Of a stretch of 60,000 nucleotides of DNA, positions 1 through 53,568 are shown piece after piece. Source of the DNA: Malacoraja senta (taxonomy: Eukaryota); assembly GCA_038087875.1 (NCBI GenBank), contig CM075989.1:13208001-13268000 (forward strand). The letters are read 5' to 3'. The notes below the pieces were generated by a model. The model did no database searches. It was not told the DNA's origin and saw only the letters and a list, made by a program, of their open reading frames with translations. Both the position numbers and the translations under genes were made by a program. Position 1 is the first letter of the stretch, and each line of letters opens with the position of its first letter.

Positions 1-408
1 CTTTCCCCTCTGATCTCCTTTACGATGATTCCTCCCTCCCTCCCACCCACCAACCATAAGCTATGCCCATCTGTCCTGGATCCTTCTGGGAATTGGGGAG
101 CGAAAGGATCTGCACTAAAGTGTGGACTAGTACCAGGTGGTTCATTACGACCTCGCATGGACAATTAGGGATAGACAATAATTACTGCCTTCTATCTATG
201 CTCACATCTGATGAATAGAAATGTTGATATCAGATGGAAATAAAGGTGCACAAAATGCTGGAGTAACTCAGCAGATCAGGCAGCATCTCTAGAAAACATG
301 CATAGTTGGCGAATCATGTCGGGACACTTCGGACCAGTATCTTTGCTCCGTCTGCATTCGGTGGCGCTTCCTCTGCCTAAAATTGAGCAACATTGAGCAA
401 GTGTAGGT

Positions 409-967
409 ACACAAAAATGCTGGAGAAACTCAGCGGGTGCAGCAGCATCTATGGAGCGAAGGAAATAGGTAACGTTTCGGGCCGAAACCCTTCTTCAGAC
501 TGATAGGGGGTGGGGAGAAGAAAGGAAAAAAGGAAAAAGGCGGAGGCGGAGCCCGAGGGCCGGGGGAGGGGAGGAGACAACCGGATGGCTGATGAAGGGG
601 AGGGGACAGCAAGGGCTAGCAGAATTGGGAGAATTCAATGTTCAAGCCCCCAGGATGTAGACTGCCCAAGCGGAATATGAGGTGCATTTCCTCCAATTTA
701 CGGTGTTGCTCGCTGTGGCCATGGAGGAGACCCAGGACAGAGAGGTCAGATACGGAATGGGAGGGGGAGTTGAAGTGCTGAGCCACCGGGAGGTCAGGTT
801 GGTTATTGCGGACCAACCGGAGGTGTTCGGCGAAACGATCGCCAAGCCTTCGCTTGGTCTCACCGATGTAGATCAGCTGGCATCTAGAGCAGCGGATGCA
901 ATAGATGAGGTTGGAGGAGATGCAGGTGAACCTCTGTCGCACCTGGAACGACTGCATGGGTCCTTGA
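409..967 (-). mobile_element. 5'-truncated Penelope-like retroelement (GIY-YIG endonuclease 3' part plus hammerhead-bearing tail)
   Basis: ORF 616-957(-) contains NLIYCIRC..C..YIGETKRRL..RF.EH; flanked by a 17-nt duplication ATTGAGCAAG(T/C)GTAGGT at 392-408 and 968-984. Confidence 0.88.
468..501 (-). ncRNA. Minimal type I hammerhead ribozyme motif (Penelope-associated)
   Basis: Reverse strand reads CUGAAGA-A-GGGU(UUCG)GCCC-GAAA-CGUU. Confidence 0.7.
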
Positions 968-984
968 ATTGAGCAAGCGTAGGT

Positions 985-1140
985 GGTCCTTCAGGCCGCC
1001 AGGTGGCGCTATGGTCGCATACGTCACCCTGCCCCGCTGATGCTGGACGCCAGCAACGTGATGACGCCACAACTGCTGTAAACAGGAAGCATCGCTGCTC
1101 AGGCGCCGCAATGCGCATGCGCGCGGAGACGGTGTTGGCC
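985..1140 (+). promoter_or_regulatory. SPPL2A CpG-island promoter / 5'UTR
   Basis: CpG-rich; CTCF-like CCGCCAGGTGGCGC 996-1009, CRE half-sites, GTAAACA, CAGGAAG, NRF1-type TGCGCATGCGCG 1112-1123. Confidence 0.7.
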
Positions 1141-1203
1141 ATGGCGACGGTTCGGGTCCGGCCGGTGGCCGCGATCTTGTTGCTGCTGCTCGGCGTGTTC
1201 CAG
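1141..1203 (+). CDS. SPPL2A: SPPL2A exon 1 (signal peptide MATVRVRPVAAILLLLLGVFQ)
   Basis: GCCATGG Kozak context inside a CpG island, hydrophobic stretch, CAG|GT donor. Confidence 0.85.
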
Positions 1204-4200
1204 GTGCCCAGGGAGAGAGGCCGCTAGCGGTATCTGTGGGCTGCCTATTCGCTCTGGTCGACAGGGAGCCCGTAGGCCATCGGTGTCCGGTCCCCACACC
1301 ACCGTCCCCCCTCCCGGTTCCTCCTCCCTTCGATTCTCTCCCCCACACCCCCCCGTGTCCGGGCCGTGATAACCCCCTGGCCCCAACCGCCCTCCCCACC
1401 ACCCCTGTCACTTGCATCCCCGTCTCGGGCCTCGGGCACAGGCCCGCCCGGGACCCGCAGCTTCATCGCGGGTAGCGGTCGCTTCAGGTCAGTCCCCTCG
1501 CCCTGAATGTTTCCTCCTTCTGTCCAATGCAGGCCGAGGCCCAGGAGGGCATCCTCCGCGCGTCCAGCAAAGAGACCTCTCTCAAAATCCGGGAGTACTG
1601 CATTATTTTCAACGCACAGTGGATGTCGCTACCCAGTACTCTGACCAACGCCGTGAGTAACAGACAACTAAAGGATTGGCTGAAAAGCAAAAAGGGAAAT
1701 AAAAAACCGCGCCCTGCACCTTTTCTGTACTTTTCACAACTTGCCTCTATGTTGAGACATTGGCTTCTGTCTTGTTGTTCCTTGACTCTAACCCCGAGCT
1801 AACCTAACTTAATCAGGTGACCGTCCCTTACATAAATCATAGGAACAGAATTGGGTCATTCTTAATGGTTCTTGATGTTGTCAATTGTCTTTTGGTTTAG
1901 GGATTGCATTATAGGCAGACCCTTATCAGACATTGTGTGTAGGAACTGCAGGTGCTGATTTATACCGGAGATAGACACAGAATGCTGGAGTAACTCAGGG
2001 GCCAGGCAGCATCTCTGGAGAAAAAGGATAGGTGACGTTTGGGTTTCCTCATTTTTTAAATTTCTCTCCATGCTAATTTCTGTTGCCAGTCTTGTCCAAT
2101 GGGGTGAGATGATGTTAGAAAATGCTGCTGTCTCTGAAATTTCTATCTAGCTCCTAAACAGGTCTCATCCTTGTCTGTAACTACATCTCCATCAATCATG
2201 TTCAAACTTGGGCTGATGCAGAGTTGTATGTAATGAGAAAGCAAAACAAAATATTGGCCATAAAGGGAACACATTTTAAATTGTCATTTTTTGAGCAGGG
2301 TGTTTTTTGTTTGTCATGTAAACGGGTCCTTTGGCTCAACATGTCCATACTGACCAAAATGTCCTATTTGGCTTTGTTAGGCCCATATCCCTCTAAACCT
2401 TTCCTATGCATGTATCTATCCAAATTGCATTTAAATGTTCTTATTCTACCCGCCTCATCTACTTGGTCTGGCAGTTTGTTCCATGTACCCACTGTGTGTA
2501 AAGGATGTCTGTCCATTTCCTATTAAATCTTTTCCCTCTCACCTTAAAGCTATGCACTCTAGTTCTTGATTTCCAATTCCCATATCCTGGGTAAAAGACT
2601 CTGGGCATTCACCCTATCTATTCCCCTCACAATTTTACACATTCTGCAAGATTACATTTTTCTTTGAGCAGGTTTGTGTTGATTTGTTACAGACACTGAA
2701 GATAAGTGAAAACTTTGCTCAGTGACATGGTCTCTAATACAGGGTGCCGTGTTTGTCCTTGTATTGAAAGGCAAGCAGGGCTGGGTTGCTCACTCCAGTG
2801 TTGATGCATGCTTGATGCATTAATACAAACTGAACTACACATGTAAAGCTCTGCTCAATGCCAATCCTATAGTTTGCTTCTTGCTGCTACTACTGGCACT
2901 GTCTTCTGTGATTTTGAAGGTTCCTTCTTGGGTCTCTTTCACTATTGATGCTTCTTTATCTCTGTAGACTAATTACCAATTACAAGACCTGACCAGCACT
3001 GAACTCTGCAATTCATCAGATGTGCCTGCTGAGGGTATAAAGGACAAGCTTGTGGTTGTGATGAGAGGGAACTGTACCTTCATTGAAAAAGCACGGGTTG
3101 CTGTGGAGAATCATGCCAAAGCTCTGTTGATTGCCTCTACAAGTCGTATAGTAAGTCGGCATTTGAATAATTCCACATCTCTATTTTTGTTTATTCACTA
3201 AAATTGCCAGCGTGTCATAATGTGCATTTTTAGTTTATCTAAAATACTGTGGCTAAATGGTCCTGTTATCGAACATCAATGGATATTTTCTTGATATTTA
3301 ATAATAGGGACTAAAACTCCCCCCTTCCAACCCCTTCTAACCAGGTGTTAAAGAAGGAACTGCAGATGCTGGGAAATCGAAGGTACACAAAAATGCTGGA
3401 GAAACTCAGCGGGTGCAGCAGCATCTATGGAGCGAAGGAAATAGGCAACGTTTCGGGCCGAAACCCTTCTTCAGACTGCCGGTCTGAAGAAGGGTTTCGG
3501 CCCGAAACGTTGCCTATTTCCTTCGCTCCATAGATGCTGCTGCACCCGCTGAGTTTCTTCAGCATTTTTGTGTACCTTCTAACCAGGAGTGACGTGTTGT
3601 AATTCTCCTTTTGAGAAAGCTACAAATCGGAGTAGGTGTAGGTCACAGCCTATAGAAATCTGTTACTCTGTTTTGAATGTGATGAGTGAGTCAGTCTCCA
3701 CAGCCCTCCAGAGAATCACAAAGGGTCATCAGTGTGAAGAAATTTCACCTTAATTTCAGTTTTATTTGGCATATACTTCACTGGGAGACTGTCACCCTGG
3801 TTTTTGACTCCATGTCGGGGGACCGTCCTTCCTACTTTCACTGTTGAACCCCCTCAGAATTTAGCAGATGTTAACGACTACATCCCATGGACCCCAGAGA
3901 GAAAGCCCAGCCCAGCAACATCTCCTCTCTGGCAGATGTGCCATCCCGGGGACCAGCCGGTGAAGCTTGGCTGCATCCTTCTAAAATATATCCTGTTCAG
4001 ATAAGGAAAACAAAATTATTCTCAATATTCGGGTCTGGAAACATTTTGTTAGGAGGGGAAATCTACAGTGGGGATGGTTTTTATTTGCTGTTATTAAATT
4101 AACTTTGAAGAATGTCTAGTTTGTTCAGAACTTAACCGTTCCTCAAATTCATTTACTGCAAAGCACTATGCTCATCAATGATCTTTTTTTTCAGATTCCT

Positions 4201-7200
4201 TCTCTGGGTAATGCATCTGAATACGAGCAGCTACAAATTCCAGTGGCCTTAATCAGCTATGCTGATGTACTGTCCATGAAAAAGGTAATTTAATTCTTGC
4301 CTTTCTGCTGCTCATTGTGCCTGGACCCCACTGTCGCCTCTTCTCTCTGCATTCTGCTGTACTGCCGCATGGCTGTTGCATGCTCCACCTGACTTTCCAT
4401 GGACCTGGCAGCAAATGAGGTTCAAACTAATGTAAGCATTTATTTTGATTGATGAAAGAAACAGGCCCTTTGGCTCACTGAATCCATGCCAACCATCAAT
4501 CACCCGTTCACACTAGTTCTATGTTATCTCACTTGTGCCTGCATCCACTCCCTACACATTAGGGTCAATTTAGAGGCCAATTGACCTTCAACGTTGTAAG
4601 ACGATAAGATATAGGAGCTGAAAGGCCTTTCGGCCCATCGAGTCTACTCCACCATTCGATCATGGCTGATCTATTTTTCCCTCATCCCCGTTCTGCCTTC
4701 TCCCAGTAACATCTGACATCCTTATTAATCAAGAATCTATTAATCTCAACTCTTAAAATACCCAATGACTTGGCTTCCCAAGCCATCTATGGCAATGAAT
4801 TCCACAGATTCACCACCCTCTGGCTAAATAAACACTTCCTCATAACCATTCTGAAGGTACATCCTTTATCCCGAGGCTGTGCCCTCTGGTCCTGGACACC
4901 GCAAATTAGTGGAAGCATCCTTTCAATGTCAGCTGCATCAAGGTATTTCATTATCCAATAGGTTTCAATGAGTTCCCCCTGATCCTTCTAAACCCAAATG
5001 AGTACAGGCCCAAAGCATTAAAACGCTCTTCATTTGTTAATGCAATCATCCCCGGGATCATTCTCATAATAGTTGTAGAGCTTGGACTGACAAGCACAGG
5101 CTTTGGTTGGAAGTATTGTCGTGGATTTGTTTCCTGGTGGCTCACTTCAAAGGGACAGGTATGGCAAAAAAAGGCGGCCTGTTGTACTGTATGGGTGCAG
5201 GAGGAGATGTGTGATTCTGAAGCAGAACGTGCAAATCCTAATCGCTCCTTGTATAAATACTTTTCGTCTCTTTTCCTCTGATTCCTTTGACACTTGGTTT
5301 AAATTTGTCTGCCTCTAAACACAAGGAATTGGGCGTAGACCTCTTGGCCCCTCAAGCCTGCCCTGCCATTCACTGTGAACGTGCCTGATCTCCCCTTGCC
5401 CTCGACTATTCTGTGCCAGTTTTGCAAAGCCCTCGACTCCCTGATTTTTCTTTCAAAAACATTACGTACCGCCTTTTTAAATACCCCCAATGATCCAGCT
5501 TTCATAACTCGGGGACAGAGAATTGCAGAAATTCACCATATTCTGTACGATCAAATTCCTATCCTCTGTGTTAAATGCCTGCCTCCTTGTCTGAGACTCT
5601 CCCTTTACAACTCTTCTTCATCACTAAATTTACATGGTCGTGCTGTCTTAGGATCTTATGCTGCAATAGGGTCACCTCTCATTCTTCTATTACAGATTCA
5701 ATTTCTTTATCATGTGTTAGAACAAGCCCCACAGACCAGGAATTAGCCCAGTCAATCTTTTGGACCTAGCATATCTAGTCTTCAATGAGGGAGCAGAAAA
5801 TGCTCAGTGCTTCATATGCCATGCCAACTCCCTGGGTATGATTATAAGAATACTTCCCTTTTTATAAACTCCAACCTTCAAGCAACAAGGCCAACATGAC
5901 ATGTGCTGCCTAAACTCCTGTATCTGCCTGCTAACCTATTGTGATTCACGCACAAGACCACCTAGATCCCTCTGTACCTATGTGTAAGATGTTGCCTTTT
6001 CATTCCTCTTACCAAGTGCATGAATTTTAAAGATAGACACAAAATGCTGGAGTGACTCAGAGGGTAAGGCAGCTTCCCTGGAGAAAATGGACAGGGGACA
6101 TTTCAGGTCGGAACACCTCTTCAGTCTGAAGAATGTTTCCAACCCGAAAGGTTGCCTATCCATATTCTCCAGGGATGCTGCCTGACCTGTTGTGTTACTC
6201 CAGCATTTTGTGTCTATCTTTGGTATAAGCCAACATCAGCAGTTCCTTGTTATCAAATGAATATTAAATGTAGTTTGCCAAGTTTGTGCCTATTCAGTCA
6301 CTCGTAGCAGTGTCCAAATATCCTCCTTGCAAGATACCCACCCATCCACCTTAGTGTTTTCAGCAAACTTTGATCCTGTGTATTCAGCCTTTTCCTTCAG
6401 GTCACTTGTATAAATCATGAATAATTTGGGTTGTCTTCAGGCTGAAGGGATTTGACTGGGGGATTACCCCAAGATCAGTTCTTGGTCCCATTTTCCCGAT
6501 ATCAGTGTGATGGCCAGCCTTCGATCCGTGGTAAAGTCTTCGTCTCCCCAGTTCTGCGAACTCTCAGCTTGTGTACCAGCCCTTAATGTAGCATGTTGGC
6601 AAATGCCTTATGGCAATATGTGAAAAATATTCCAAATCACTGACAAAACAACAGCAAACCCAATTCAGATTATTCAGAAAATATTAAACAATACTGATCT
6701 AAACTAGGAGAACTCAATGCTTTTACATTTACGAATTGTGGTAATTTTTATCTTTGGATCAGTCACCTGCCTGGAGAAGGCATTGGCTGTTGGAATCGTA
6801 TCCTTGATGTACCACTTATTAGGTATTATTTTGGTTGTAGGTGCTGGGGAATCAAATTTCAGCCACACTCTACTCTCCTCCCATGCCCTCTATGGACTAC
6901 AGCATCCTGATTGTCTTCTTTATTGCTGTTGGAACTGTTGCCCTTGGAAGTTACTGGAGTGGGATAGAAGAACCGGAAAGGTAAATCGGATCTGTTGAGT
7001 GGTATTGCTTTTTAAGCTTGGCACGTGTTCTTATCAAAGTTAACATAGGGCAGTAAGGTGGCGCAGCGGTAGAGTTGCTGCCTTGCAGCGTCAGAGACCC
7101 AGGTTCAATCCTGATTACAGGTGCTGCCTGTACGGAGTTTATATGTTCTCCCCGTGACCACATGGGTTTTCCCCGGGATGCTCTGGTTTCCTCCCACACT

Positions 7201-10200
7201 CCAAAGATGAACATGCTTGTAGGTTAATTGGCTTCAGTAAAGATTGTAAATTGTCCCTGGTGTATAGGATAGTGCTAGTTTACGGGGATCGCTGAGGACT
7301 GTCTCTACACTGTATCCCTAAACTTAGGTCAGATATTTTCTTTTCTACTGAGTGAGCTTCAGGTTAAGGAGGCTGATTTGCTTGTCATCTCTTTTGCTCT
7401 CTCTCGCTTCTAATCATAGAACAATTGACAAAATTGTATGGGGTTGCTTCTTTAGTCTTTGTGGGTTCTTTTCCCACAACTTGAATCTTTTATTTTAATT
7501 TAGAGGTACAGCATGGAAACATGCCCTTCAGCCCACCGAGTCCATGCTAACCATCGCTCACTCGTTCACACTAGTTCTAGGTTATCCCGCTTTCTCATCC
7601 ACTCCCTACACATTAGTGGCAATTTTGCAAAAGCCAATTAATATATAAACCCGTGTTAAAGAAGGAACTGCAGATGCTGGAAAATCGAAGGTACACAAAA
7701 ATGCTGGAGAAACTCAGCGGGTGCAGCAGCATCTATGGAGCGAAGGAAATAGGTAACGTTTCGGGCTTCATATATAAACCTGCATGTCTTTGGGACGTGG
7801 CAGGAAACCCACATGGTCACAGCTCTGGACAGACAGCATCTGTGGGCAGAATCGAACCTGGGTGCTGTGAGACAGCTGCTCTACAAGCTGCAAACAGTTG
7901 GGATATGCTGTACAACTAACTGCCAGTGGCCCAAATTCCTCGTCACCAGTTTGTTCCTGCAGTCCTATTTCTGTATTTTAGCAGCAGTCTAATTGGTCAT
8001 GTCGTTGTTCTGAGCTTAACAGCTTTACTATAAGATGATAGATTGTACTTTGAAAAATTTAACAAGTGATTGTTTTTAATCTTATTTCTTTTGGGGAAAA
8101 GTGAAAATTTATCAGCTGAATCCAGATCAAGGACCCGGAGAGGGAGTAAGAATGAGGACACGGCAAACATCTTGACTCCAATCACCGTCCTATTTTTTGT
8201 CATCATTGTTATCGTGATGATTGTACTGTTGTACTTCTTCTACAAGTGGTTAGGTGAGAATGTTGTGCATTCAGACATTTCCGTTTATGTAATAAATCCC
8301 AGAGTAAGGAAGGTATAGTACTTGCACTAGAGCCAAGAAATCAACTTGGAGCATGGTATAAAAGTGCTATTGCTTAACCGACTGTTAGAAAAGTAGTAAA
8401 GAATTGATGAACAGTGAAGTATCATTTACTTTGGGAAGGTCACTCTCTGCAAGTTAATGCAATCCCAGTGTAATATGCAAGTTGCACTAAGTTTGTTAAA
8501 TGTTGTGTTTAGCTTTTATCAGTGTGGGCTCTTATTCACAAGGATAGTTGTAAATTGGGAAAAGTTCAAAGTTAGTACTGCAGACTAAACAACAGATGTT
8601 TAGTTACCCCAAAGAGATTATTCGTTTTACGTTTTACTCGAGGTTGGAAGTCTTTTCAAACAAATATGTGGAAATGGTCTTAAGCACAGAACTCTGAGCA
8701 GCTTAAAAATGCAGCAGTACATAGAATGGATGTGTGGAAAACTTACCTCTGCTTGTTTCCCTTAGTGTACGTGGTCATTGCCATCTTCAGCGTAGCTTCA
8801 ACAATCAGTCTCTACAATTGTTTGTCGGCGCTAGTGAGGAGAATCCCATATTGCAAATGCAGGTAAGCTGCCTTTAAACCTTTCATAGTAGTTGAACATT
8901 CTCTTTCAGAAGCAGAAGGACATTGAAGTATCATTTACATCAGTTACAAATGTGCTTGAGTACAGCTTTCAGTCGCTGCACTATAGTACGTTAGTGCTTG
9001 TCTGCGAGCCGTTGTACACAACAGAGTATCGCGTGGTTGTGGCCTACAGATATGCTTTCCGTAACTTGTCTGTGCCCAGAGTTCAGAGAGCAGCATCTTG
9101 CTGCGATTCACCAACATTCACTTGGATCCTATGCCGCCTTGGACCTGACACAGCATTGTCGATGCATGGTTTTTGATAGGATTAAAGTGGACGATGGTTA
9201 AAAATAAGATGCATTCCTTTGCAACTGCAGTTTGTACAGTGTTTTTTTGTAGATTAGTAAAATTCGAAACAAATTTAAATAATTGAGACACAGTGGCACA
9301 GCTGCTGCCTCTCAGCGACAGAGACCTGGGTTTGATCATGACCATGGCTGCTGTCTAAGTGAAGTTTGCACATTCTCCCTGTGTGCATGGATAACACCAG
9401 GTGCTCCGGTTTCCTCCCATATCCCAAAGATGTGTGAATTTGTAATCCTTTGTAAATTGAACCTAGTTTGTACGGAGTGGATGCGAAAGTGGAATAATGT
9501 AGAACTAGCATGAATAGGTGATAGCATGATGGTTGGCATGGAGATAGATGGCAGGCCAAATGCCCTGTTTCCAGGTTGTATCTCTAAACTAAGCTGAAAT
9601 TGTTAAATCTTTCTGTGTCAGCTGACAATCTGGGAGTGGGCTTCTATTCTCAGGCTTGGGAATGTGTTTCCCAGGCAAAGTCCACCCCCAACACACACCA
9701 CCTTCAGCCTCCATGGACATGATGGCCTTTACCTTTTTGTTTCAGCTTCATGTGCAGTAGCAGAAGGATTGAAGTTCGTTTGGTGATGCTCGCATTGTTC
9801 TGTATGTCATTGGCTGCAGTGTGGGTTGTGTTTCGAAATAATGACAGGTGAGTGTCCAGACAGCAAGCTGCCATCAACTGGTGTGTGCTAGTGCTGACCA
9901 CAATGAATGGACCAGCATGCTGTGTGGGATGTTGAGTGTTTGCCTAGAGGAAGAATTGCTAAAAGCAGTGGTATAATAGTTTGAAAATTAGGTCGAGTGC
10001 CAAATTGTTGGAATCGATCACTTTTTCACAAAACAATTAGTCTGCATATGTCTTGGCTATTCAAGTGCCTGACTAAATATTTCCCAAATTTAGGGATTGC
10101 ATCCGATTCCACCACCTGTTCCAGCACCATGTTCTGCATTAATTAGTTTATGCATTAATTTTTTTTACATCCCTTCCTGTGCCCTTTAGTTTTTGGTACC

Positions 10201-13200
10201 ATGGGAAAAGATGCTTTCTCCTGAGTAGTTCTTTGATCAGATAAGATCGGCATTAAAATGCCATACTTGCTTATGGACATCTGGTTTGTGTATGGGGGGG
10301 GTGGCACTCAGATCCTCACACCTGCCTCTGTGTACAGTAAGCTCCCGACTGATCTGATTGTACTCGCATGCCTTTATTCTCTTCACAAATCCATTAAACC
10401 ACCTGATCTGTCTACCATTAATAATCAAAGGAAAGACACTTAGTGCTGGAGTAACTCAGCGGGACAGGCTGCATCCCTGGAGAACATAAATAGGTGACGC
10501 CTCGGGTCGGAAACCTTATTCAGACTTTTGAAAACATCCTAAAAGGCCATTGAAAGTAGAGCTGAAAAACCCATGCTTCTGGCAATAGATATTGTCTTCT
10601 CTGTCTCAAATGGGAATTCCTTACTTTTAAATAGTTTTTCTTAGTTCTAGATTCTCCCAAAGATTAAATGTGTCCACCACACAAGATCTTGTCTGTTTCA
10701 TTTGAGTCCTTCCTTGCCTGACCAATCTCTAATAGATGTTATGGAATAGCATACCCTCTGCAACGTCGAGTTATGTACTGATCTAGGGCACAGGACATGA
10801 CTTGTGATCTGAATTGTCTGCATATTTTTTTTAAATTACTATTTACAAAAGCTGTAAGATTTAACTCTGATGTCTGTGGCTCTTCTTCTTCGTGTGGCGT
10901 GCACAGCCTAAAGTTGTTGGACAACTTGTTCTATTTGATCTTCCGTTTGTGCACGTCGAGTTGATTGCATTAGTCGAAACAGGGCGGACCACGTGAAGGT
11001 TGCAATCTTCCACCCCGTCTGTGGCTCTGAAAATGAGCGGGTGATGTTTTTCAGGAGACTGGGAATGTATGCTTTGAGAATGAGGTCCTTCACCTACTAA
11101 AGGTCCTGCGTCCAAGATCGTTAGTACTCTCTTTGTTAAATGCGGAGTTGGTATTAAATTCACTGACTTGCATTTTAGATGGATTTGGATTCTACACGAC
11201 TGTCTTGGAGTTGCTTTTTGCCTTAACTTCTTGAAGACCTTGAAGATGCCTCACTTTAAGGTAATGCGTGTGTTGTTCGGGAATATCCTGTTTTTTATTT
11301 AGATGGGCAAACTATATTTCTGTTGTAGAACTATCTGTTCATCATCTGATAATGCAAAATAAAGTGGATTTGAATCCTTATGGGAAATTCTGAAAACAAA
11401 AGTGGATTTTGGGAAGTCACTGAGGTATAACTTACTATTTGGATGCTGAAAATCATGAGAGCCCGTGCTGATTCTGAATAGTTGGTTGACTAGTCTCGTA
11501 AACAGGGACGAGCAGTGTGATGGCTTCAGGGGTCATGGACTTTGGAAAACCCTGTGAGGAAGTTGCTTCCCCCCATTAGCTGATTAAGCTGAATAGAACA
11601 TGTGGGGAAAGGGGAGCATTAAAAACAGACAAGTGAGGAAATGGAGCTTGTGGTAGGGGCAAGCTGAATGAATGTCAGTCATTCTGCGGGGTTTTTTTCT
11701 GGGACCATATGCGTAACCAATTTGGTTGATGGTCTAAAGAAAATGTTCACAAGATGGAAAACTAAATTAATCGGGGGTGGGGGGAGATATTCTCTTGCAG
11801 TTCCTTAGTCTGAGGGAATTACAATATATTTCTTGCTGCAGGCATTTAATAACTTTTGGTGTATACCTGCCAACTGGCTCCCTGAGGTGCAGCCATTAGA
11901 GCAGGGTGGAGTGGTGGGGGTAGAGTTGATGGGACTGTGGGGGAAATAGGCTGCGGCGGAAGTTATTGGGATTGTGATTGCTTGGTATTGGTGGGCTGAA
12001 GTGGCTTCAGCGCATTTGGAAGCCTGTAGCACAAAGGAACGTGTTTTTTGCTGGGTGCTAATCTTCTTCACTTGATTTCCAGTCCTGTGTCATCTTGCTG
12101 GGTCTCCTCCTCATCTATGATGTCTTCTTTGTTTTCATCACGCCACTCTTCATGCCGGTGAGTTTACTGCTCTAGCTTCCCGCAGTGCAATGCAGCCCAG
12201 TATCTACAGAGGGTGTTGAGTAATTGCCTAGCTTTTACACCCTTACCACTGTTAATGAAGCCAAGGGTCTAATTTGTTTTAAGTCTCAATTTGTGCAATT
12301 TGAGAATGTGAGCACATTGGTACCGTCACTCCAACAAGTTTCTCCATGTTGCAGAATCACGAGAGCATTATGGTTGAGGTCGCAACAGGATCTGGATCTG
12401 GCAGCGGTGAAAAGGTAAATTATAAACTAATATTTCAGTGATGGGTTAAGGCTGGTGCTTTGCTAACTAACCGTCAAGCTGGGATTGGGATTCCTTGTGC
12501 ACTAAATATCGGGTTTGATTCTAGACTACTGGAACCAACTTAATGGAACTTGCTGTTGCACCAGCGCCTCATAATGAAAAAGTAAGAACTTGTTTATCAA
12601 AGCTTAAATGTTACAGGGTAATTACTTTTTAATCTATCTATATATACATTACAAAAACTCTCATCTTGTTTGTAAGTTTGTTTGTAAATTGTGCATTGTA
12701 CCTATATTTGTGCAAAAACGGTACACGATAGAGCTACAATTTTTGGCCCAACTTACCATTGCCCTGTGATGTAAATGAAACCAATTTAGTTCAGATTGAT
12801 GGTATATTTTATCAGTTATTGACATTTTAAACTTTACAAAAAAACCACTGCCCATCAGCCGCGTTTGACGTCACAATGGGATCCCGAATTTCATTTACAT
12901 TAAAAAAAAAGCGTAGTTATTTATATTCTAAAACCTCCCCGTGATTTTCATTGGGGGGGGGTTCAATTTTTTTTTAAATCGTGATTTTCATTGTTGGGTG
13001 GGGGGGGGGGGGGGATAGGATAGGGCGGAAGTTTCATTTAAAAAAAAGACATCTCTATTTTCATTGTGGGGGGTAGGATAGAGGGGAGGTTTCATTTTTT
13101 AAAAGAAATTGCGATTTTCATTGTGGTGGGTGGGATAGGGGGGAGGGGAGGAGGATAGAGTGAGGGGAGGAGAGAGGGAGGGGAAGGTGGGGGAGGTGAG

Positions 13201-16200
13201 GAGGGAGAGGAGGAGGGAGAGGAGGAGGGGGAGGGAGAGGGGGATAGAGGGAGAGGTGGGGCGATATTGGGAGAGGAGGGGGATACTGGGAGAGGAGTGG
13301 GGATAGAGGAGGGAGAAGTGGGGGGTGGGATAGTTTGTAAGAGGTAGATTGTACCTATACTTGTGCAAAAATGGTACACCATAGCGCTACAATTTTGGCC
13401 CACCTTGCCATTGTCCTGTGATGTGCTGTAGCAAGTTTCGTTCAGATTGATGGTATATTTTACAAGCTGTTCACATTTTAAACTGCAAAAAACAATTTTA
13501 CAAAAATCACTTTTCCACTTGCCCTGCCCGTTACCGTGTACGACGTTACAATGACGTCACAATGGGATCCCGAATATCATTACAAAAAAACCTTGATTTT
13601 CATTGTGGGTGTGTGGGATAGGGGGAGGTGAGCAGGGGGGTAAAGGGAGAGGGCAGTGGGGGAGGTTAGGAGGGAGCGTGGGGTGGTTGGGATAGGGGGG
13701 AGGCGAGTAATGGGAGCAGGGGGATAGAGGGAGAGGAGAGGGAGGGGAGGGGGGGGGATAGAGGGATAGGAGTGGGGGAGGGGAGGAGGAGAGGGAAAAG
13801 AAGAGGGAGGGTGAAGAGGGGGAGGGAGTGCTGGGGATGAGGGGGAATGGAGGAGGATAGGGGTGGGCAGAGGGATGGCGAGGTAATGGAGATGGGAAGA
13901 GGGATGAGGGAAGGAAGCAGGAAGGTTGGTGGAGGGTGGGTAGAGAGGATAATGGAGGAGGGGAATAGGGGACTGAAGAGGGAGAGTGAGATGCGTTCAG
14001 ATTGATTTTATATTTTACAGGTTATTGCCATTTTGAACATAAAAATATCGCAGTCGCTCTCCCACTTGCCGGCTGAGTCTGCGCAGTTGGGGGAGGGTTG
14101 CCGTGACTCGCGTCACAACGGATACCCGTCAGCCGCGCCTGCGCAGTTGGGGGCTATGGGTCAGTGGTGGAATATTGCCTTGGGGGACAGCCCCAATGGG
14201 TCCACACTTGGTCTAGTTATTTTTAAAACTATCATTAGTTCTTGGCGAAACTGGCAGGCCAGTTCAATTGGCTCTGCCAGCTGGTTGTCTCTGAATCACT
14301 GGGGGCATACTGTTCCTGGTTGAGGAGATGTGGAGGTTGCCCATTGTCAGAGTAGAACAAATTGTGAACTGTTCAAATTTTCAGTGCTTTCGAAAAATAA
14401 CAGATGATGTGAGGAAATATGACCGTTGCATCTTCTTCCAATTGTATCTTTGTTTGTGGTTCAGTTAATGATCTTGACTGTGGCTGTTTTCTCTAGTTGC
14501 CTGTAGTTATCAGAGTGCCAAGATTGGTGCCGTCTGTTGCAACCTTGTGTGGAATTCCATTTTCTGTCCTGGGGTTTGGTGATATTATTGTACCAGGTGA
14601 GTAAATTCTGCACCCATGGAATGACTTTATGAGAACTGAGTGTTTGCAAATCTGTTGACTGCCATAGAATTTATTCTCTAAAGATTGTTTCCTCTGTATA
14701 AATGAGGACATTTGAATGTTGATATTTGATTTTTTTTGACAGGTAACAAGGTAAATATTTTATGTCATTTATGTGGGGGTTAAAAACAGAATGGCTGCTC
14801 CTGCACTGAAATTTCTGAAATCTGTAAATTCCCTCCCAATTTCCCTAAAAAAATCCCATTATCAACTTGAAAGATAAATTCTTATGTTGATAGAACAGCA
14901 ATTGCTTGATTTGGTGATAGATTTAGTTTAGTTTAGAGATACAGCGCGGAAACAGGCCCTTCGGCCCACCGGGTCCGCTCCGAACAGCAATCCCCGCACA
15001 TTGACACTATCCTACACACACTAGGGACAATTTTTACATTTACCATGCCAATTAACCTCCAAACCTGTACGTCTTTGGAGTGTGGGAGGAAACTGAAGAT
15101 CTCGGAGAAAACCCACGCAGGTCACGGGGAGAATGTACGAACTCCGTACAGACAGCACCCATAGGCGGGATCAAACCCGGGTCTCTGGCGCTGCATTTGC
15201 TGTAAAGCAGCAACTCTACAGCTGTGCGGATGGGTTTTTTCCAAATCAAATGGAGGTGATTAAGCCATAGTTGTGTAAAAAAGGAAATGTATTATGATTG
15301 TAGAATAAGAATCCAGTTGCTCTGAGGGGAGGTGCAGTGTGATTGTGCCAGGGTGGAGGTGGTGGGCAGGTGGATTTGGGAGTGCATCAAATTTATGGAA
15401 CCCGGCAGGTAGCGCTGAATATGTTGGCAGTTCAGGGAAGATTTGGATCGTAGATTTCAGGTGATGGAGTTGGAGACTTTCACAAATCCACTGAAATACT
15501 GCCCATTGAACTAAAGATTTGGCGTATGCCGTGCCTCAGTTCCACAGAGCTGAAAATAAGGAACAGTTCAAGCTACAAATGTGCAAGTTTAGCTGATTTC
15601 TGAATTGTGTGTGTATTGTGCAGGATGGTGAATTTCACTGCCAGTCATATTTTGCAGGATTATTGGTTGCTTATTGTCGAAGATTTGATGTGGTGACAAA
15701 CGGCTACAACATCTACTTCATTCTTTGTACAATAGGTAATGGAATTTTAATGAAATTAGTAAATGAGAAAATATTTTTATAGCTAATAATTGTCAGAAAA
15801 AAACAATTACATCATGAATAAGTTTTGTAAAGGATCGTATGATAACATTCCAGTCTTGTCTGAAATGTATATAAAATAGCACTCATCTCCTCAGGGAGAA
15901 TTGAGGAATTGCATACTGTTGTATTGATCTGGGTCTAAAGTATTTGCATGCAACGAAAGAGCCATTAAAATCACCTACAGTAAAATCTGTAGAATCTTGT
16001 CTATTAAATGGCTGTTATACTATTCCAAGCTGTTCTACCTTTGATAATGAATTACAGAGAATTGAGAAGCTGCGGTGTCTATATTATATGCCAAACCAGC
16101 CTCTGTCAAACTTTTCACAAAATTGTAGACAACGTGCAAGCAGGGAGAAGGTCATTTGTCCACCGTTCCCTTGCCAGCCAACCAAATCCAACCTTGGCCC

Positions 16201-19200
16201 CGCAGGTCACTGCCCTTCAGACATACATCCAAGTACTGCTTAAATGGGACAGCTCTGACTCCACCATGTTTTCAGACCATCTGTTCCAAACCACTACCCT
16301 CTCTGACATTGTATTGCTCACAAGCTGATCCTTCTACCAAGTGAAAACCAAAAAACGCAGATGCTCGGAATCTGAAATACCTTGGTACATGTGACAAATA
16401 TAGTTCCATACCATTCCATAAACAGAGTGCTGGAAATGTTCAGCGGGTCCATTAACCTTGGTAGGGAAAAAAACAATTTGTGTCGATTCTGAGACCTTTG
16501 GTTTAGTTCTGATGCTACCTGTCGTTCTACCAGTAACTAGTTCACTACTTCTGATAGTAGAAATAGATTCTTCCTATTTCTACTGAATGGCCCCTCGTAA
16601 TAGTACGCATCTCAATTATGCCTCGTGCCACCCCCCCCCTTCTCCAAAGAATGTAGTCCTGCCTTATAACTCGCAGTTCCTCATTGCTCCAATGTTCCAT
16701 TCTTGGCAATGTCCTTGGTTTCCTTTACAATCGCTACTTTGTAGTTGCATCTTTCCCACAAACAAGTGGCCAGAACAACAATTCTACCATAAACTTGGAC
16801 AAGGTTAATAAATGACAACATCCTGCATGACTTTTCAACAACATTGCTCACCTGTTCTGGAATTTATTGCAGAGAAGTAGTTCATGCATTTGAGGAGTTG
16901 TAAAAGTTCAAACAAATAAACAGTAAATGGGAGGGTATTGATTACTGGGCATACAGGGGGGGGGGGTCTCTATGCTGTGGATGGCCACCAGTGTTTTTCC
17001 CCATAGTGTTGAAGGGGAGGGAGTTCTAAGATTTGCACAGGTGTTTGATGGCTTTGTGCTACATTTCCAAGTGAAGATGGTGCTGTTTGGGGGGGGGGAC
17101 CTGCAGATAATGTTTCCATTCACTTACTGCCCTTGTTCTTGGTAGAGGTTTGCGGGTTTATGAGGTGTTGAGCATGTAACTGCACATGGAATACAAATCC
17201 CTTCAGTGCTGGCCGTGTTACTGAACAGCATTGCATATGTCAGGAGTGGGTCCGACATGTACACTCCATGCTACCAGTTGACTCCCAATTCCAACAGATT
17301 CTGAGACCGACTTAAAGGAATCTTTAACAATCTGCCATCTGTGTTCTCTGACTTGCGTGCCCAGTAATACAAAGCCTCATCTGTCTCACTGAGTAGATTG
17401 CTTAATGAAATGACTAAGATTTCTTCACTCTGGTCCTAATTTTTGGGTAGTAGCCGGTGAATATTGAACACCTGCCCATCAGATATTGCGACTGTGTATT
17501 AGGCCAAGGTCACCAGAGATCAGTACCAGGATGCAGGGATTGAAGTTCGGCAAAGAGCAATTTGATTCATCATATGCATTTAACTACTTTGAAAATGCAA
17601 AAATGTATCTATATTAATAAAATATCACTTGGTTTACCGCAAGACTCTGCATGTTAATGGACAAAGGTGTTTCTTGAGGTCAGGTGGGGCGGGTTAGTTA
17701 ACAACCAATGGCAGTGTGTGGTTGTTTAAGGGAAGCGCAGCACTTGCTAACTGGATGCTTTACATGAGTTTGGAATTTGGATCAAATCCCACTGACCTTT
17801 CACAGAGTGGATATGTTGGAAGTAATGAAGATCAGAGGAAGACAAACTGCTTTTCTGTCTATTCTGCAAGTTCTGAAATGGGAAGCAATATTTAATTATA
17901 ATTTTTTTTTCCAGCATATGCAGTAGGCATGATGTTGACATTTGTTGTTCTGATCGTTATGAAGATGGCACAGCCTGCTCTACTCTACCTTGTACCATGT
18001 ACTCTCATCACTTGCACTATAACGGCCATCACGAGGAAGGAATTAAGAATATTTTGGACGGGAAGTGATTATGAGGTTAGCAGAATTCATTAGCTCCTCT
18101 GTGTTTGAATAATTTATAATTAAACTTTTAAAAAGTGCTTGTCTGACTTTGTATGCCAATCTCAGTGTCTTCAAACATAAACGCAATAAGCACATAGTAA
18201 ATAGTGCTGTATAATACTGCAATATGAATAGTAAAAATAGGCATATATTGGTAATACATTTGTGGCTAGTCATTAAAGTATATTTAGGACTGGCCACAAA
18301 TGTATTGCCAATGTATGGCTATTTTTACTATTTATATTGCAGCATGTCTGATCGTTATAAAAATGAACCGCAGATGCTGGTTTATACCAAAGATTGACAC
18401 ACGGTGCTGGAGTAACTTGGCAGGTCAGGCAGCATCTCTGGAGAAAATGGATAGATGATGTTTTGAATCAGGACCCTTCTACATACGGAAGAACAATCCT
18501 GACCTGAAATGTTGCCTGTCCAATTTCATCAGATGTCTGATCGTTAGCTTGATAAAGAACTTTAGACACTGTGTATATACATTTTAAATTTTTCCATTAT
18601 GCAAAGGACATTATGATAAGTGTCATTTTGATCATGTAGCCCTTTGTGAGCTATTTTTACATGTCACCAGCTAAAGATGGTAAAACTCTTCAGACTTGAA
18701 AAAAAGATGTTCTTCAAATCTCCACATTCCACAATGGTGACTAATTTAGTGGTGGCCAGTATTTATGTTTTTAAAGTGTAGTGGCAGATAATTTGATAAG
18801 CACAAGGGTCTATCTTTGAATGCCGGTCAAACTGATGGGTTTGTTAAGTTGCCGGGATATGATTTTAATTAGAAGGCTTCAGTCCAAATAAATGTTATGT
18901 AGCTTGTGATTATATTATTGGACTGGGGATGTAGTCCAGTTCATCAAGATATGTGGAATTAAAAATCTTGCATCGATATTGGCAATAAAAAAAAAAAATC
19001 ACTAATATTCTATGGGGAATGTGCTGTGTGCATGCTGACCTTTGATATGGATCTGGAGTCACAACACGATTGATTCTTGAAGTAACAAGCCAGTCAAGTT
19101 CAGACAAATTTGGAGCAAGAATGGCAATGAGAATGCAGTTTTTTCACTTCCGATGTTGACACTTGTAAGGGTGGCTGTTTTTGTAATGTTATTGCTCTAT

Positions 19201-22200
19201 TGGTGCTGAATAATTTAAATTATTTGTTCGGTCTGTAATCAACACAGGGTAGAACAAACATTGCACTGGAAATGATGTGTCACAGATTTGAGTTCATAGC
19301 TTGGAGCTAAGGATGTAGCTTGTGTTTCTAAATGGGGAATGATGTATTAGAGGGTGTGGGAGATTGCAACCTTCACGTAGTCTGCCCTGTTTCGACGAAT
19401 GCAATCAACCCGGCGTGCACAATCAAATAAGATCAAATAGAACAAGTTGTCCTACAACTTTAGGTTGAGCACACCATATGCAAGAAGAAGATGATGTATT
19501 AGAGCACGATTGCCATGTTTAGTGACCACAAACTTAATGTAATCAGCCTCTCTAGGTCTTCGACATCACCAGGGAACCATTATTCCAAGGTAGGACACAA
19601 GGAAATGTTTTATTTGTCGGGGGCTTGTCTCTCATCAATTCCTTAATTCCAGTTGTGTCTTTCTGTTGTTACTTTCTCTTTTTCCTTCTGGTGCACTATT
19701 CCAAATTCCATTTTGCCTAAAAAAAAAACATGCTGCTGGTCATTTTGAACAGTGTGACAAATATTTACATTTGGGGGAAATGAAAGCTGCTTGGAAATCA
19801 AATCTTTAAGCTTTAATGTTTGTTGTAACTGTGATTATTGACTTTGTTCTTATCAAATTAATGATTTTTGTTGAGATGTCTGTCTTGAAACAGCAACTGG
19901 TGATCAAATGTAATCAACTAAAGCAACTCGGTCTCCCACAATTCCCATGTGCTGTCTAGAGCAATAAAAATAAGCCTTCCTTATGATGTGATGGACTTCA
20001 GTAGGCAAACAACATATGACTGGATGTCTTGCAAATTTCTGTGGGTGATGGATCTGGGACCATTTGTGATGGTGCAGCTTGCTGGGATTGGGGCTGTCAT
20101 GGCTGGTCACACCTCAGGCAGGTGATCTTTGCATAGTTGTCAGTAGGGTGACAGTGTGGCGGTGCGCAGCCTTGCTCTGACAATGTGCTGCTTATCATCC
20201 AAGTGCTGAAAGGTTTGCTTTAGTTTATTCTGATCTGGTGATTTGTTTCAGTCCAGAAGAAAGCAAAGCTTATTTCACAATTATATTGGACAACAATTTC
20301 ACATCCTTAGGTCTGACATTTAAATTTAAACCGCACTACTGTGGTTGGGCTACCCTTGGAGGAAGGGTCCTGGAGTGATCGCGTGGACAGTCGGTCTCAG
20401 TCTACCTCAATTCAAAGCAATCTAGGAATGTTTTTAATGGCCACTTTTCCTGAAGCCAGTCTTTCCACACATGTAACTTGCAGCTGTGAGACTGAAATGT
20501 GAAGTCACTACTTGCCTGCCAACCACACCTGCACATAGCAATCCTGCATCACTTTCAAGCAATTTGCCTTCAATACAGCTTCAGCTGTGCTCAAACAACC
20601 TCGTCCACTCGCCATTAATATTTGGTCACATTTATGAATGTTTGTGCTATACATAGGTTTTACAAGGCTTCAATCCCACTAGTACTCAGACTGACAAGTT
20701 TCCTCGAGCTCAGCAGGTGCTTTATGGTGAGGAATCTATTTATCCAATTTGCATTACAAACACGCTGTTTGGGGAGGTCCAGTGCCAGAGAGTTTCAGGA
20801 TTAAATTCCATCCGCCATTGCTCTGCCTATTCCTATCAAGTAATCATTATCATCCCCCAGTCCAGGACTATCTTCGCTATCAACACCGCCAACAATGATT
20901 GTCACATCTGTGAGCCTCCATCTGTCAGGGCCCCAGCAGTTTCCTCCCGTGCTTCCCATAACAGTCGGATATATCTCATCAAGTCCTAGGGATTTATCCA
21001 CTGTTAAACCTGCTAAGATATCTAATATCCCCTCTGTTTTAATTATATTGTGTTCAATAATTTAATTGTTTTACTCTCACCCCTCCCTCAATCCGCCATG
21101 AACAGTGTTCTTGGTGACTGGAGGGGTAATAATTTAAGACTTCAAGTCCTCTGGCTCCATGCACAGCTTTCCCCTTTGGTCCCCAATGAACCCCATTCTT
21201 TCCCTGGTTATTCTGTTATCCTTAAGGGCCTGTCCCACGTAGGCGACTTTTTAGGCGAGTGCAGGAGACTCTGCGCTCGCCACATGGTCGGCACATGTTC
21301 GCTGGTGGTCTCTGGTGAACCTTCCTGTTCATCGCGATGTGTCTGTATCACCTTGGCTTTGCACCTTGTGAATTTCAGACAGCGCTCCCCCGCTTTACCC
21401 GCCTTTGCGATGTGTTTGTGTGCGTGTTCCACTCTGACAGACGCCGTTCCAGTTCCCGGTTTTACAGGCGAGTGCCGCGAACTTGACAGTCGCCGGCAGT
21501 CCGCTGAAAAATCGCATGTGGGTCAGGCCCTTTAATGATTTGGCATTTTCTTTAATCTGGTGTGCCATGATATTTTGTGCCTCCTATTTGACATAAATGT
21601 CTTTAAGTACCTCCCCCGTTCCCCCAAACTTTCTATACACCTGACGGGCATTCTTTATTTCAATTTCTCATCACGTGACATCTGCTTCCCTTTTTTCCCC
21701 TTCATGCAAGTCATGTTTTCCCTTGACATCCAAGGTTCCTTGGACTTGCTGTCCTTAACTTTCACCTTTATAGGAACACGTCCACCTGAAATCATTAACT
21801 CCCACTTGTGGGATGTCACTTTCCCTGCAGGCTCTTTTTACCATCCGAGCTACAGTGGCTTGCAAAAGTTTTCATACCCCTTGAACTTTTCCACATTTTG
21901 TCACGTTACAACCACAAACGTAAATGTATTTTATTGGGATTTTATGTGATAGACCAACACAAAGTGGCACATAATTGTGAAGTGGAAGGAAAATGATATA
22001 TGGTTTTCAAATTTTTTTACAAATAAAAAACTGAAAAGTGTGGCGTGCAAAAGTATTCAGCCCCCCTGAGTCAATACTTTGTAGAACCACCTTTCGCTGC
22101 AATTACAGCTGCAAGTCTTTTGGGGTATGTCTCTACCAGCTTTGCACATCTAGAGACTGAAATTTTTGCCCATTCTTCTTTGCAAAATAGCTCAAGCTCA

Positions 22201-36857: not shown

Positions 36858-38976
36858 CTATAGGGAGGTTGCACGCAGTTGAGGTCGTGACCCGTAAGAG
36901 CCTGTCCCATTGGGGGTCGCGCGTGTCATCATGCGTGCGCACCGCCGTCTGGAGCGGGTGACGTCATTTGAAGATAGACACAAAATCCAGGAGTAACTCA
37001 GCGGGACCAGCTGCATCACTGGAGAGAAGGAATGGATGATCTTTCGGGTCAAGACGTCTCGACCCGAAACGTCATCCATTGCTTTCCAGAGATTAATAAT
37101 AATAATAATACATTTTATTTATGGGCGCCTTTCACAAAGTCTCAAGGACACCTTACAAAGTTTAACAAATAGTGTAGAAACATGTAAGCGGAATGAAATA
37201 AATAGCAAAGACATCACCAGTACACAAATTAAAGATAGAATTAAATCCAAAAACAAAAATCAAAAACACAATATGGAAGAGATTACTCCAGAGAAACGTC
37301 ATCCTTCTCTACAGAGATTACTCCAGCATTTTGTGTCTATCTCCAATCGTCTTGGCCCCGCTCTGGGAGTAGGAGTGGGGGCGGATCTGGATCCGCAACG
37401 GCCGTAAGCCCCAGGCCGAGCTCGGCGATCGTTTGCCTGCTTCAGCTGCTGTTGGAGGTGAGACGTTGCGCCGCGCCAGGGTCTTGGGCCTGTCCCACTT
37501 TGGCCGTCAGATACGCGACAGGCCGGTGGAAGATTTCGTGCAGGACGAAGTCCACGCCACTCCACACCACTCCATGCGCCCATCTCGCGCTACCCACACG
37601 CTAGCAGGTCGAGTAAATGGCACGCGAATGACAGCCAAGTGGGACAGGCCCTGTACTGTTGCCTCGCAATGCCAACTGGAGTACACGCGATGAACTGCAG
37701 GTAAGCATTTACTATGGCTGCCAGCACAGCGGGCCCTTCTGGCCCAGCATCCGGACTGGTTGCACACTCGCAGACCCCGGGCCATCTATCCCTGCGGTCG
37801 GGGGGGGGGGGGGGGGGAAGAAGGAGTTCGGGGTGCCGGTGCAGCGTGATCAGTGACTCTGGGTGGGGTGGGCGGAGGGAGCAGACCATCCCTAACTCTG
37901 CTGCAGCTGACGTTGCCTGGAGCCGCGGCCCCGCTCCACTGGCCCCGTGTGTGGGCGCTGCCGACCCACAGCCAGTGACAGTGCGGCCCATAGGGGGAGA
38001 CGGGACGGAGGGCGGCCATGGCCGGACAGCGCTGTCTCCGGGGGGGGGGGGGGGAGAGAGAGGGAGCTGTCCCGAGGGATGCGTTCCTTCTGCCGCTTAC
38101 ACCTCGGGTTCAGAGCAAAGGTACTAGAGCATTTGGTTCAGAGCGCTCAGTCACCCAAAAAAAGATAACCCCACGATATTGCAATCGAGTTACTCTGAGT
38201 TTGAGTTTGCTTTATATAGCGAAGGCTTATTGAAATGGTGCTGTCTGAACACGACAATGAATGCGGCTATTAGTCGCGGATTGTAAAAGACGCTACACCA
38301 TGAGATAACACATGTTTAAACCTTATCCCTTCCCGCTTTCATTGACAGCACCCACAATTATTTGCAGCACAGAAATTGACCATTTTGGCGTTTTTTAAAT
38401 TTTTTTTATGGATATTTTTAGTAGAAGCAAAAACATATTATGGTAAAAACATTTCATGTATATCAATCATACATTATTAATATTTGTATTGTGGATTGAT
38501 TCTGCTTCTAGTTTTTTTTTATAGATAGAAAGTAAGAAAGAGAGAGAGAAAACCCCCCACAAATGTCAAGATTTAAAAAAAAGTGGAATGATTTACTAAT
38601 AATACATCATTGGAGATAGGTTCGTAGGTTATAAAGTATAACTTTTCATCTAATCCTAAGTTCAAGCTTCAGTTAGGTTCCCGTGCCGAACCGATCTACC
38701 CCTTCAAATAGTCAATGAATGGAGACCATATTCTAACAAAAAGTTCTTGTTTGTCCATTAAGACAAATCTGATTCTTTCGAGGTGTAGGGTCTCCGACAT
38801 TTCCAAAATCCACATTTTAATTGTGGGGCTTATAGGGCGGTTTTTAACAGGTAAGAAAGTACGTGTTTCGTGTGTTAACTGTGTATGCCGAGGCAGCCAT
38901 ATCTTCCACATGGATTGAGCTGCTCCGTGCATCACACCCTTTGACCCGATGACCTTACGTGCAACCCCCCCTATAG
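36858..38976. mobile_element. Non-autonomous TIR DNA transposon hosting nested insertions
   Basis: Inverted termini CTATAGGGAGGTTGCACG (36858-36875) and CGTGCAACCCCCCCTATAG (38958-38976). Confidence 0.65.
36897..37652. mobile_element. Composite PIF/Harbinger non-autonomous element
   Basis: Termini AGAGCCTGTCCCA / TGGGACAGGCCCT; TSD GTA at 36894-36896 and 37653-37655; extra internal TIR at 37486-37500. Confidence 0.78.
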
Positions 38977-52398: not shown

Positions 52399-53568
52399 AG
52401 AAACTCAGCGAGTGAGGCAGCATCTATGGAGCGAAGGAAATAGGCAACATTTTGGGTCGAGACCCTTCTTCAGACAGATGTTTTGGGGGGGGGGGCGGCA
52501 GTGGGAAGAAGAAAGGAAGAAACGGAGACAGTGAGCTGAGGGAGAGATGAGAAGGGGAGGAGAAAGCAGGGACTACCTGAAATTAGAGAAGTCAATGTTC
52601 ATACTGCTGGGGTGTAAACTGCCCAAGCAAAATATGAGGTGCTGCTCCTCCAATTTACAGTGGTCCTCACTCTGGCCATGGAGGAGGCCCAGGACAGAAA
52701 GGCCAGATTCGGAATGGGAGGGGGGGTTGAAGTGCTGAGCCACCGGGAGATCAGGTAGGTTAATGCAAACCGATCGGAAGCGATCGCCAAGCCTACGCTC
52801 TTCTATACCCCGTAACTCTGCTCTCACTCCCCATCCCCCCCACTCGTAACAAGGGCAGTCCCCCGTGTCCTCACCTTCTATCCTACCAGCCGTCACATAC
52901 AACAAATAATCCTCCGACATTTTCACCACCTCCAACGGGATCCCACCACCGGCCATATCTTCCCATCTCCTCCCCTGTCTGCTTTCCGCAGAGACGGCTC
53001 CCTCCGTAACTCCCTGGTCAATTTGTCCCTTCCCACCCAAACCGCCCCCTCTCCTGGCACTTTCCCTTGCACCGCAGGAAATGCTACACTTGTCACTTTA
53101 CCTCCCCCCCCCCCCCCCCCGACTCCATTCAAGGACCCAAGCAGTCTTTCCAGGTGCAGCAGAGGTTCACCTGCACCTCCTCCAACCTCATCTATTGCAT
53201 CCGTTGCTCTAGGTGTCAGCTGCTTTACATCGGTGAGACCAAGCGTAGGCTTGGCGATCGCTTCACCCAACACCTCTGCTCGGTTCGCATTAACCTACCT
53301 GATCTCCCGGTGGCTCAGCACTTCAACTCCCCCTCCCATTCTGAATCCGAACTTTCTGTCCTGGGCCTCCTCCATGGCCAGAGTGCGGACCACCGTGAAT
53401 TGGAGGAGCAGCACCTCATATTTCACTTGGGCAGTTTACACCCCAGCGGTATGAACGTTGACCTCTAATTTCAGGTAGTCCCTGCTTTCTCCTCCCCTTC
53501 TCACCAGCTGAGTTTCTCCAGCATTTTTGTCTACCTTTGATTTTCCAGCATCTGCAGTTCCTTCAAAA
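52399..53568. mobile_element. Penelope-like insertion with inverted duplicated 3' ends
   Basis: GIY-YIG ORF 53067-53468(+) and an inverted copy of its 3' end at ~52400-52800(-); TSD CCCTGAATGCTATA at 52385-52398 and 53569-53582. Confidence 0.88.

Follow-up and report, generated by a model that had tools for sequence, protein, structure and literature searches.

The palindrome at positions 3346–3579 of the window, by which we mean the whole 60,000-nt stretch of Malacoraja senta DNA that was analysed, is a real, young and ordinary product of a known class of element. Judging from sequence comparisons, it is probably a single, heavily 5'-truncated insertion of a Neptune-like element, whose mirror symmetry would have come from reverse transcription off both nicked target strands.

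Structure of the palindrome

The initial annotation had described two 98-nt arms with one mismatch around a 5-nt loop, and recomputation gave exactly this: arms at 3379–3476 and 3482–3579, a single mismatch (3399 versus 3559) and the loop TGCCG at 3477–3481. The 13-nt flanking duplication that it had also reported was located at 3333–3345 and 3575–3587, the first 5 nt of the second copy coinciding with the end of the right arm. The left arm alone carries a 33-nt extension (3346–3378), the Penelope 'tail'. The hairpin predicted for 3330–3600 has an energy of −216 kcal/mol (z = −27.6). The motif CUGAAGA-A-GGGU(UUCG)GCCC-GAAA-CGUU, said to be present on each strand, was found at 3484–3511 (+) and 3474–3447 (−). 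The features are as follows, those without a sign being unstranded:

3333–3345: target-site duplication, left copy, 13 nt
3346–3378 (−): Penelope 'tail', 33 nt, absent from the right arm; its counterpart in L136, a full-length copy, runs on into the element body
3379–3476 (−): left arm, a Neptune-like pLTR whose 5' part is cut off at the hammerhead start
3445–3476 (−): minimal hammerhead motif, helix I of 2 bp, GUU triplet, predicted cut after 3447
3477–3481: junction filler, present only here and in a duplicated block (see below)
3481–3514 (+): minimal hammerhead motif, helix I of 3 bp (the filler gives the third pair), GUU triplet, predicted cut after 3511
3482–3579 (+): right arm, pLTR, stopping at the standard short end (position 96), no tail
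3575–3587: duplication, right copy; 5 nt shared with the arm end (microhomology)

The arm is the pLTR of a Penelope-like element

We identify the arm as a pLTR because its sequence recurs in two settings: behind a GIY-YIG frame in the window, and on both sides of a 968-aa frame in L136. The copy in the window is:

405–990 (−): longer 5'-truncated copy of the same family as the palindrome, GIY-YIG frame followed by pLTR

Here a 124-aa frame with a GIY-YIG match (616–990) is followed by an arm-like pLTR (405–502) that is 99% identical to the arm. In L136, the 968-aa frame (L136:3298–6201) contains RT followed by a C-terminal GIY-YIG; the matches to RVT_1 (E 6.5e-6) and GIY-YIG (E 1.2e-3) are both below the Pfam curated cut-offs, and the frame also has DKG, YIDD and a CX5CX2C linker. 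The N-terminal part sits in a different frame. pLTRs at 2251–2381 and 6320–6427 flank the coding region. The segment 53010–53468 of the window exceeds the GIY-YIG cut-off. The link to Penelope made in the initial annotation is thus borne out by a full-length copy: the arm is the pLTR of an abundant endonuclease-bearing (EN+) Penelope-like element. From its linker, and from the occurrence of Neptune in vertebrates, this element appears to be Neptune-like. A CX2-5CxxC linker between RT and EN marks the Neptune/Nematis clade (PMC8557442).

The exact 28-nt motif occurs 19,101 times in the genome, and a 34-nt piece of the arm has 31,785 exact matches. A sister motif, in which stem II contains a U-A pair and the triplet is GUC or AUC, occurs 23,565 times, and a genome search with the 124-aa GIY-YIG frame gave 91,237 first-look candidates. 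Other members in the window are:

6030–6251: older pair of pLTRs facing each other head to head around a 1-nt centre, the right arm being the tailed one
18354–18532: older insertion, now decayed, with its tailed arm at the left end and a 14-nt duplication
36970–37345: older pair whose junction falls within stem II; it lacks the CUGA core, and other sequence interrupts it
52399–53564: larger head-to-head insertion of a sister subfamily, endonuclease sequence in both arms, one tail, 14-nt duplication

The first three had been annotated as older palindromic relatives. Of these, 18354–18532 has one recognisable tailed arm, its second arm being undetected by BLAST, and 36970–37345 has no CUGA core and is interrupted. 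The 6030–6251 pair is about 73% identical, and our script found no clean duplication around it.

Several neighbouring sequences were also noted. A young tailed solo arm at 7654–7766 is cut within stem II, with an 11-nt duplication and no ribozyme core. An unrelated inverted repeat with 63-nt arms (87%) at 18214–18345 adjoins the older Penelope copy at 18354. At 22071–23015 (−) there is a 314-aa open Tc1-type transposase frame (HTH_Tnp_Tc3_2, E 6.5e-25; DDE_3, E 8.7e-14), free of stops and probably from a young copy. Elsewhere in the genome, C1:3870351–3892470 and 4008183–4030234 are arrays of about 2.4-kb units with one pLTR each; three sampled units had the same upstream flank and look like tandem amplification of one insertion site.

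Junctions between the arms

The genome contains 634 head-to-head junctions near the hammerhead start and a further 872 centred inside stem II, where the CUGA core is gone from both arms. Palindromes lacking the core are at least as common as those bearing it (872 versus 634, from search patterns that differ in stringency). The first 50 palindromes had 30 different junctions, three of the loci being duplicates. The commonest centre was a single base, seen at 18 of the 50 loci (A 10, T 8); in a second set of 43, the centre base was G in 29, C in 13 and T in 1. These samples, and those used for the arm ends, are the first 50–100 matches on one contig and not random. The junction of the palindrome at 3346–3579 has two occurrences in the genome: this one, and another within a block of 99.9% identity at a distance of 74.7 kb. 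Inverted pairs range up to kilobases with coding sequence (L114, L248 and window 52399–53564). Because the junctions vary, this one is unshared and 872 palindromes have no core, the mirror appears to be made anew at insertion, independently of whether the ribozyme is retained.

These results bear on the initial reading of the palindrome as a retrozyme-like unit that presents a ribozyme whichever strand is transcribed, which we considered in the form of a non-autonomous mini-element copied whole. Similar palindromes number in the hundreds, neither strand has lost the motif, stem II pairing is kept between the subfamilies (U-G versus U-A) and the one-base centre recurs at 18 of 50 loci, all of which such an element would explain. 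The recurring centres, however, are explained by short palindromes in the pLTR and occur in both orientations. Moreover, the junction is unique and there is no tandem arrangement, palindromes without the ribozyme are no rarer than those with it, sizes grade up to the coding-sequence-bearing kilobase pairs and the complementary arm is always transcribed first. The mini-element is already largely refuted, and we regard it as very improbable. What had been taken for a retrozyme-like unit consists of two truncated pLTRs from an element that encodes protein. Non-LTR retrozymes are head-to-tail tandem units with at least two ribozymes per transcript, copied as a unit; what we found is an inverted pair with one ribozyme per strand, a junction unique to the block and its copy, and 30 junctions at 50 loci.

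Arm ends and insertion mechanism

Copies of the family end at two fixed sites about 33 nt apart. When 83 arms were chosen by an internal motif, 25 ended at the tail and 58 at the short end. The short end of the palindromes (92–96) is also the main 3' end of copies chosen regardless of shape. Within palindromes, one arm ended at each site: tail plus short pairs made up 42/50, 43/50 and 28/30 of three sets (the 30-pair set overlaps the others), and there were no tail plus tail or short plus short pairs in any of them (50, 50 and 30), the rest having one arm cut or damaged. If the two ends were chosen independently, such pairing would arise with a probability below 1e-8 in each set. The duplications of palindromic copies were 13–16 nt, with a peak at 14–15 nt (26/50 and 23/50). 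In 28 pairs, the short arm reached further 5' in 10, the tailed arm in 6, and the two were equal in 12. The short arm can exceed the tailed arm by up to about 600 nt (L248), and in L247 and L141 a tail-only stub stands opposite a longer short-ended arm within one duplication. Most copies had no inverted partner within the stretch examined (14 of 86 had one).

An A/G variant at position 29 was common to both arms in 50/50 and in 36/40 pairs (permutation mean 20.1), the latter set leaving out 10 of 50 loci (3 duplicates, and 7 in which an arm was damaged or no tail was called). Pairs with A in both arms look younger than those with G in both. Rare variants were present in both arms in only 5 of 77 cases, which disfavours frequent later homogenisation of the arms. 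The shared variants fit one RNA copied twice; successive source elements could equally produce them.

Taken as cDNA, each arm begins at one 3' end of the staggered break. We propose that the enzyme would nick the two target strands about 14 nt apart and that the two 3'-OH ends would prime at different places, one at the tail site, the other internally. Both cDNAs would terminate early, in this copy at the hammerhead start, and their ends would then be joined, often via annealing at two short pLTR palindromes and, in this case, with some bases of filler. On this view both hammerheads would be passengers, and the host pre-mRNA would carry a predicted 98-bp hairpin. There is a precedent in vitro, where two RT start sites bound the tail, both strands are cleaved and extended, a dimer is predicted and the ribozyme is not needed (PMC11167929). 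That system comes from another clade, Poseidon, and its two strands did not differ in start site.

An alternative, close to a proposal in PMC3846280, is that a tail-primed cDNA folds back on a short 3' palindrome, copies itself and is resolved at the short-end site. This would account for the junction hot spots on the two short pLTR palindromes (the 18/50 one-base centres and the 872 junctions centred in stem II) and for the position-29 variant common to the arms (50/50 and 36/40), although both nicks using one RNA would also give shared variants. The excess of G over C among centres (29 versus 13, p = 0.02) speaks against two-nick priming and leaves room for some fold-back. However, fold-back predicts that the short arm never extends further 5', and it did so in 10 of 28 pairs; it also predicts a fixed centre base, only A or only G, yet T was seen in 8/18 and C in 13/43. 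The centre of the present copy is filler, with no palindrome on which to fold. Since there are no two-tail or two-short pairs and either arm can be the longer, we favour priming from both nicks and consider fold-back unlikely as the general route.

Two-nick priming could take a more specific form, which we put forward tentatively and with slightly less than even confidence: an RT-endonuclease dimer may hold one RNA and prime it at both nicks, using the two fixed sites 33 nt apart, one per strand, with the rear enzyme displacing the first cDNA. One RNA would then be copied twice. If true, this rule of one RNA per dimer would account for the tail being confined to one side, the repeats standing head to head, the stubs made of tail alone and the variants shared between arms.

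At the 5' junctions of L059, L184, L189 and L210, short re-copies of the first hammerhead bases lie between the duplication and the element, and look like repeated re-priming in end joining.

Host gene, age and assembly

The palindrome lies in a gene resembling SPPL2A, downstream of the following exon:

2968–3150 (+): coding exon 3 of the host gene, which is SPPL2A-like; the element begins 195 nt into the following intron

The exon encodes a PA domain, and a PDB search matched it to human SPPL2A (E 1e-9). Two coding exons, at 1141–1203 and 1533–1652, precede it, so the intron is intron 3, as first annotated.

At its junctions the palindrome is not an assembly artefact, a possibility raised at the outset: two samples of the same organism have contigs that run across the left junction, by 25 and 5 nt, and across the right one, and they show zero differences. 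Its centre is spanned by no contig from either sample. Both samples carry both junctions, and no empty-site joint was present among the 15 joints listed (there were 807 further). In a contig from a related organism, the flanks are joined by 40 letters, against 273 in the window and 31 predicted for an empty site. The empty site in that contig indicates that the insertion arose after the split from that organism. The left arm and tail are identical to the pLTR of the full-length copy at 126 of 128 nt, and with the empty site this upholds the view that the insertion is young.

A block of at least 20 kb, which includes the start of the SPPL2A-like gene and the palindrome, is repeated 74.7 kb upstream at 99.9% identity, with 13 mismatches and 4 gaps (C13:13128334–13148333, against window 1–15001 plus the preceding 5 kb). 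A 200-N gap at about 13,200,146 separates the two copies, and the repeat is possibly a false duplication of the second haplotype.

This duplicated block beside an assembly gap, and the density of copies (about one exact motif per 100 kb), could be cited for a mirror made by assembly or by two independent pLTR insertions that landed head to head. With a single duplication enclosing the whole unit, the strict pairing of tailed and short arms, both junctions present in contigs of two samples and a related organism's contig that joins the flanks without the element, we consider this the least probable explanation, with hardly any chance of being right.

The hammerhead motif

A third copy of the motif is present in the window at 472–498, and there were no matches in 100 shuffles. 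The features of a minimal hammerhead with a palindromic ACGU, as initially claimed, are in place: the core CUGANGA/GAAA/UH, an extra base at 9/10, G10.1-C11.1 and the palindromic helix III (ACGU). Stem II is paired in both subfamilies, and the cleavage triplet is GUU in both motifs of the palindrome. Helix I, for which the criterion is 4–5 bp, has 3 bp (+) and 2 bp (−); in L136 it has 2 bp, then a 2×2 loop, then 2 bp. The short helix I does not remove the motif from the class, because a D. virilis hammerhead also has a 2-bp helix I (PMC4209133). A folding program preferred another fold over the hammerhead, even when given a single arm, and an Rfam search at E ≤ 1 gave no hammerhead match. A match to Rfam mir-722 (47.9 bits against a gathering score of 81) was rejected as reflecting the hairpin only.

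In agreement with the earlier suggestion that the hairpin sequesters the ribozyme, the predicted 98-bp hairpin in the host pre-mRNA would hide the motif and would block cleavage of the putative ribozyme. The companion suggestion, that a ribozyme is on offer whichever strand is transcribed, did not survive: the complementary arm is always transcribed first, and each transcript holds a single ribozyme and therefore has no dimer partner in cis.

The 5' starts of 81 copies (the 83 above minus two array duplicates) were distributed as follows: 34 at −5 to +8, 13 at +11 to +14, 3 at 20–24, 5 at 29–31, 5 at 34–47 and 21 further upstream. Positions 29–31 lie at or just past the predicted cut. Ribozyme cleavage was rejected as the source of the 5' ends, with 5 of 81 copies starting there. 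The distribution suggests that templates were mostly uncut, as in PMC11167929; a small fraction may have been cut, of which the 29–31 cluster is a weak hint. As to why so many copies stop near the hammerhead start, our guess is that transcription starts there.

A pyrimidine tract followed by AG abuts the 5' side of hammerhead helix I at window 498–520 (−) and L136:2225–2255, and many copies begin at this site. We take these bases to resemble an initiator motif. In the D. virilis Penelope, an intron likewise ends at hammerhead helix I (PMC4209133). In four possible RNA runs from other organisms, covered as contigs only, no GT..AG joint indicating D. virilis-like splicing was found among the 15 joints listed (116 further). 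At L136:2303–2428 the pLTR and tail contain a 41-codon open frame that begins with an ATG and comes before the ATG at 2416, where the frame of the element body starts; it is possibly an upstream frame.

Discussion

There is no sign of a host role for the palindrome, which is one among more than 1,500 similar ones. Intronic hairpins of this sort, young, perfect and about 100 bp long, would supply the animal with double-stranded RNA if they fold as predicted. That pLTRs stand head to head, with a tail on one side and a duplication, is already published Penelope anatomy; what the present data add is the strict pairing of arm ends, which can serve to test how Penelope inserts. The covered parts of PMC3846280 and PMC8557442 leave open why these insertions contain inverted repeats and are tailed at one end only. 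The family data sharpen the question into a prediction for the in vitro system: a different start site should be used on each target strand, and both arms should bear the marks of the same RNA. Within the literature searched (most subscription papers and Repbase fell outside its scope), we found no paper linking two-nick priming to Penelope inverted repeats and none on this Neptune-like family.

The insertions resemble those of EN+ Penelope elements, with head-to-head pLTRs, a 30–40-nt tail at one end, a duplication and a short junction palindrome (PMC3846280; PMC8557442). In Pen2a_Av the pLTRs are inverted and one bears a 31-bp tail; a duplication is present too, palindromes lie at the junction, and self-priming was suggested (PMC3846280), and the Penelope tail is often at one end only (PMC8557442). 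Unlike Pen2a_Av-type insertions, the arms here are only about 100–130 nt and hold no coding sequence, and the commonest duplication is 14–15 nt, compared with 8–10 in the rotifer examples (PMC3846280). The more than 1,500 head-to-head junctions come from one genome. In PAc, the Poseidon of Anolis (Frangieh et al. 2024, PMC11167929), two RT start sites bound the tail, as the two end sites do here; in the passages covered, priming on two strands is not tied to inverted repeats, and no pairing of a tailed with a short arm is reported.

Minimal hammerheads have been described in pLTRs, some paired on opposite strands and with low activity (PMC4209133). Ours share the core, the extra base before stem II, G10.1-C11.1 and the palindromic 15.2–16.2 positions, but differ from the published ones in their predicted helix I of 2–3 bp, stem II of 4 bp and GUU triplet. 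Published dual motifs lie 100–700 bp apart on opposite strands, whereas the two here are 9 nt apart. Non-LTR retrozymes, which form head-to-tail tandem repeats with at least two ribozymes per transcript, are likewise short, non-coding and pLTR-derived, with a type I hammerhead (10.64898/2026.07.22.740005). Unlike those tandem units, the palindrome is an inverted pair with one ribozyme per transcript.

A comparison for the mechanism is LINE-1 twin priming, reportedly described by Ostertag and Kazazian in 2001. There, both nicks reportedly prime and leave an inversion within one duplication; the two cDNAs are said to cover different parts of the RNA, and the second site to vary. In the present family, by contrast, the second site is fixed and the cDNAs would usually overlap, yielding a palindrome.
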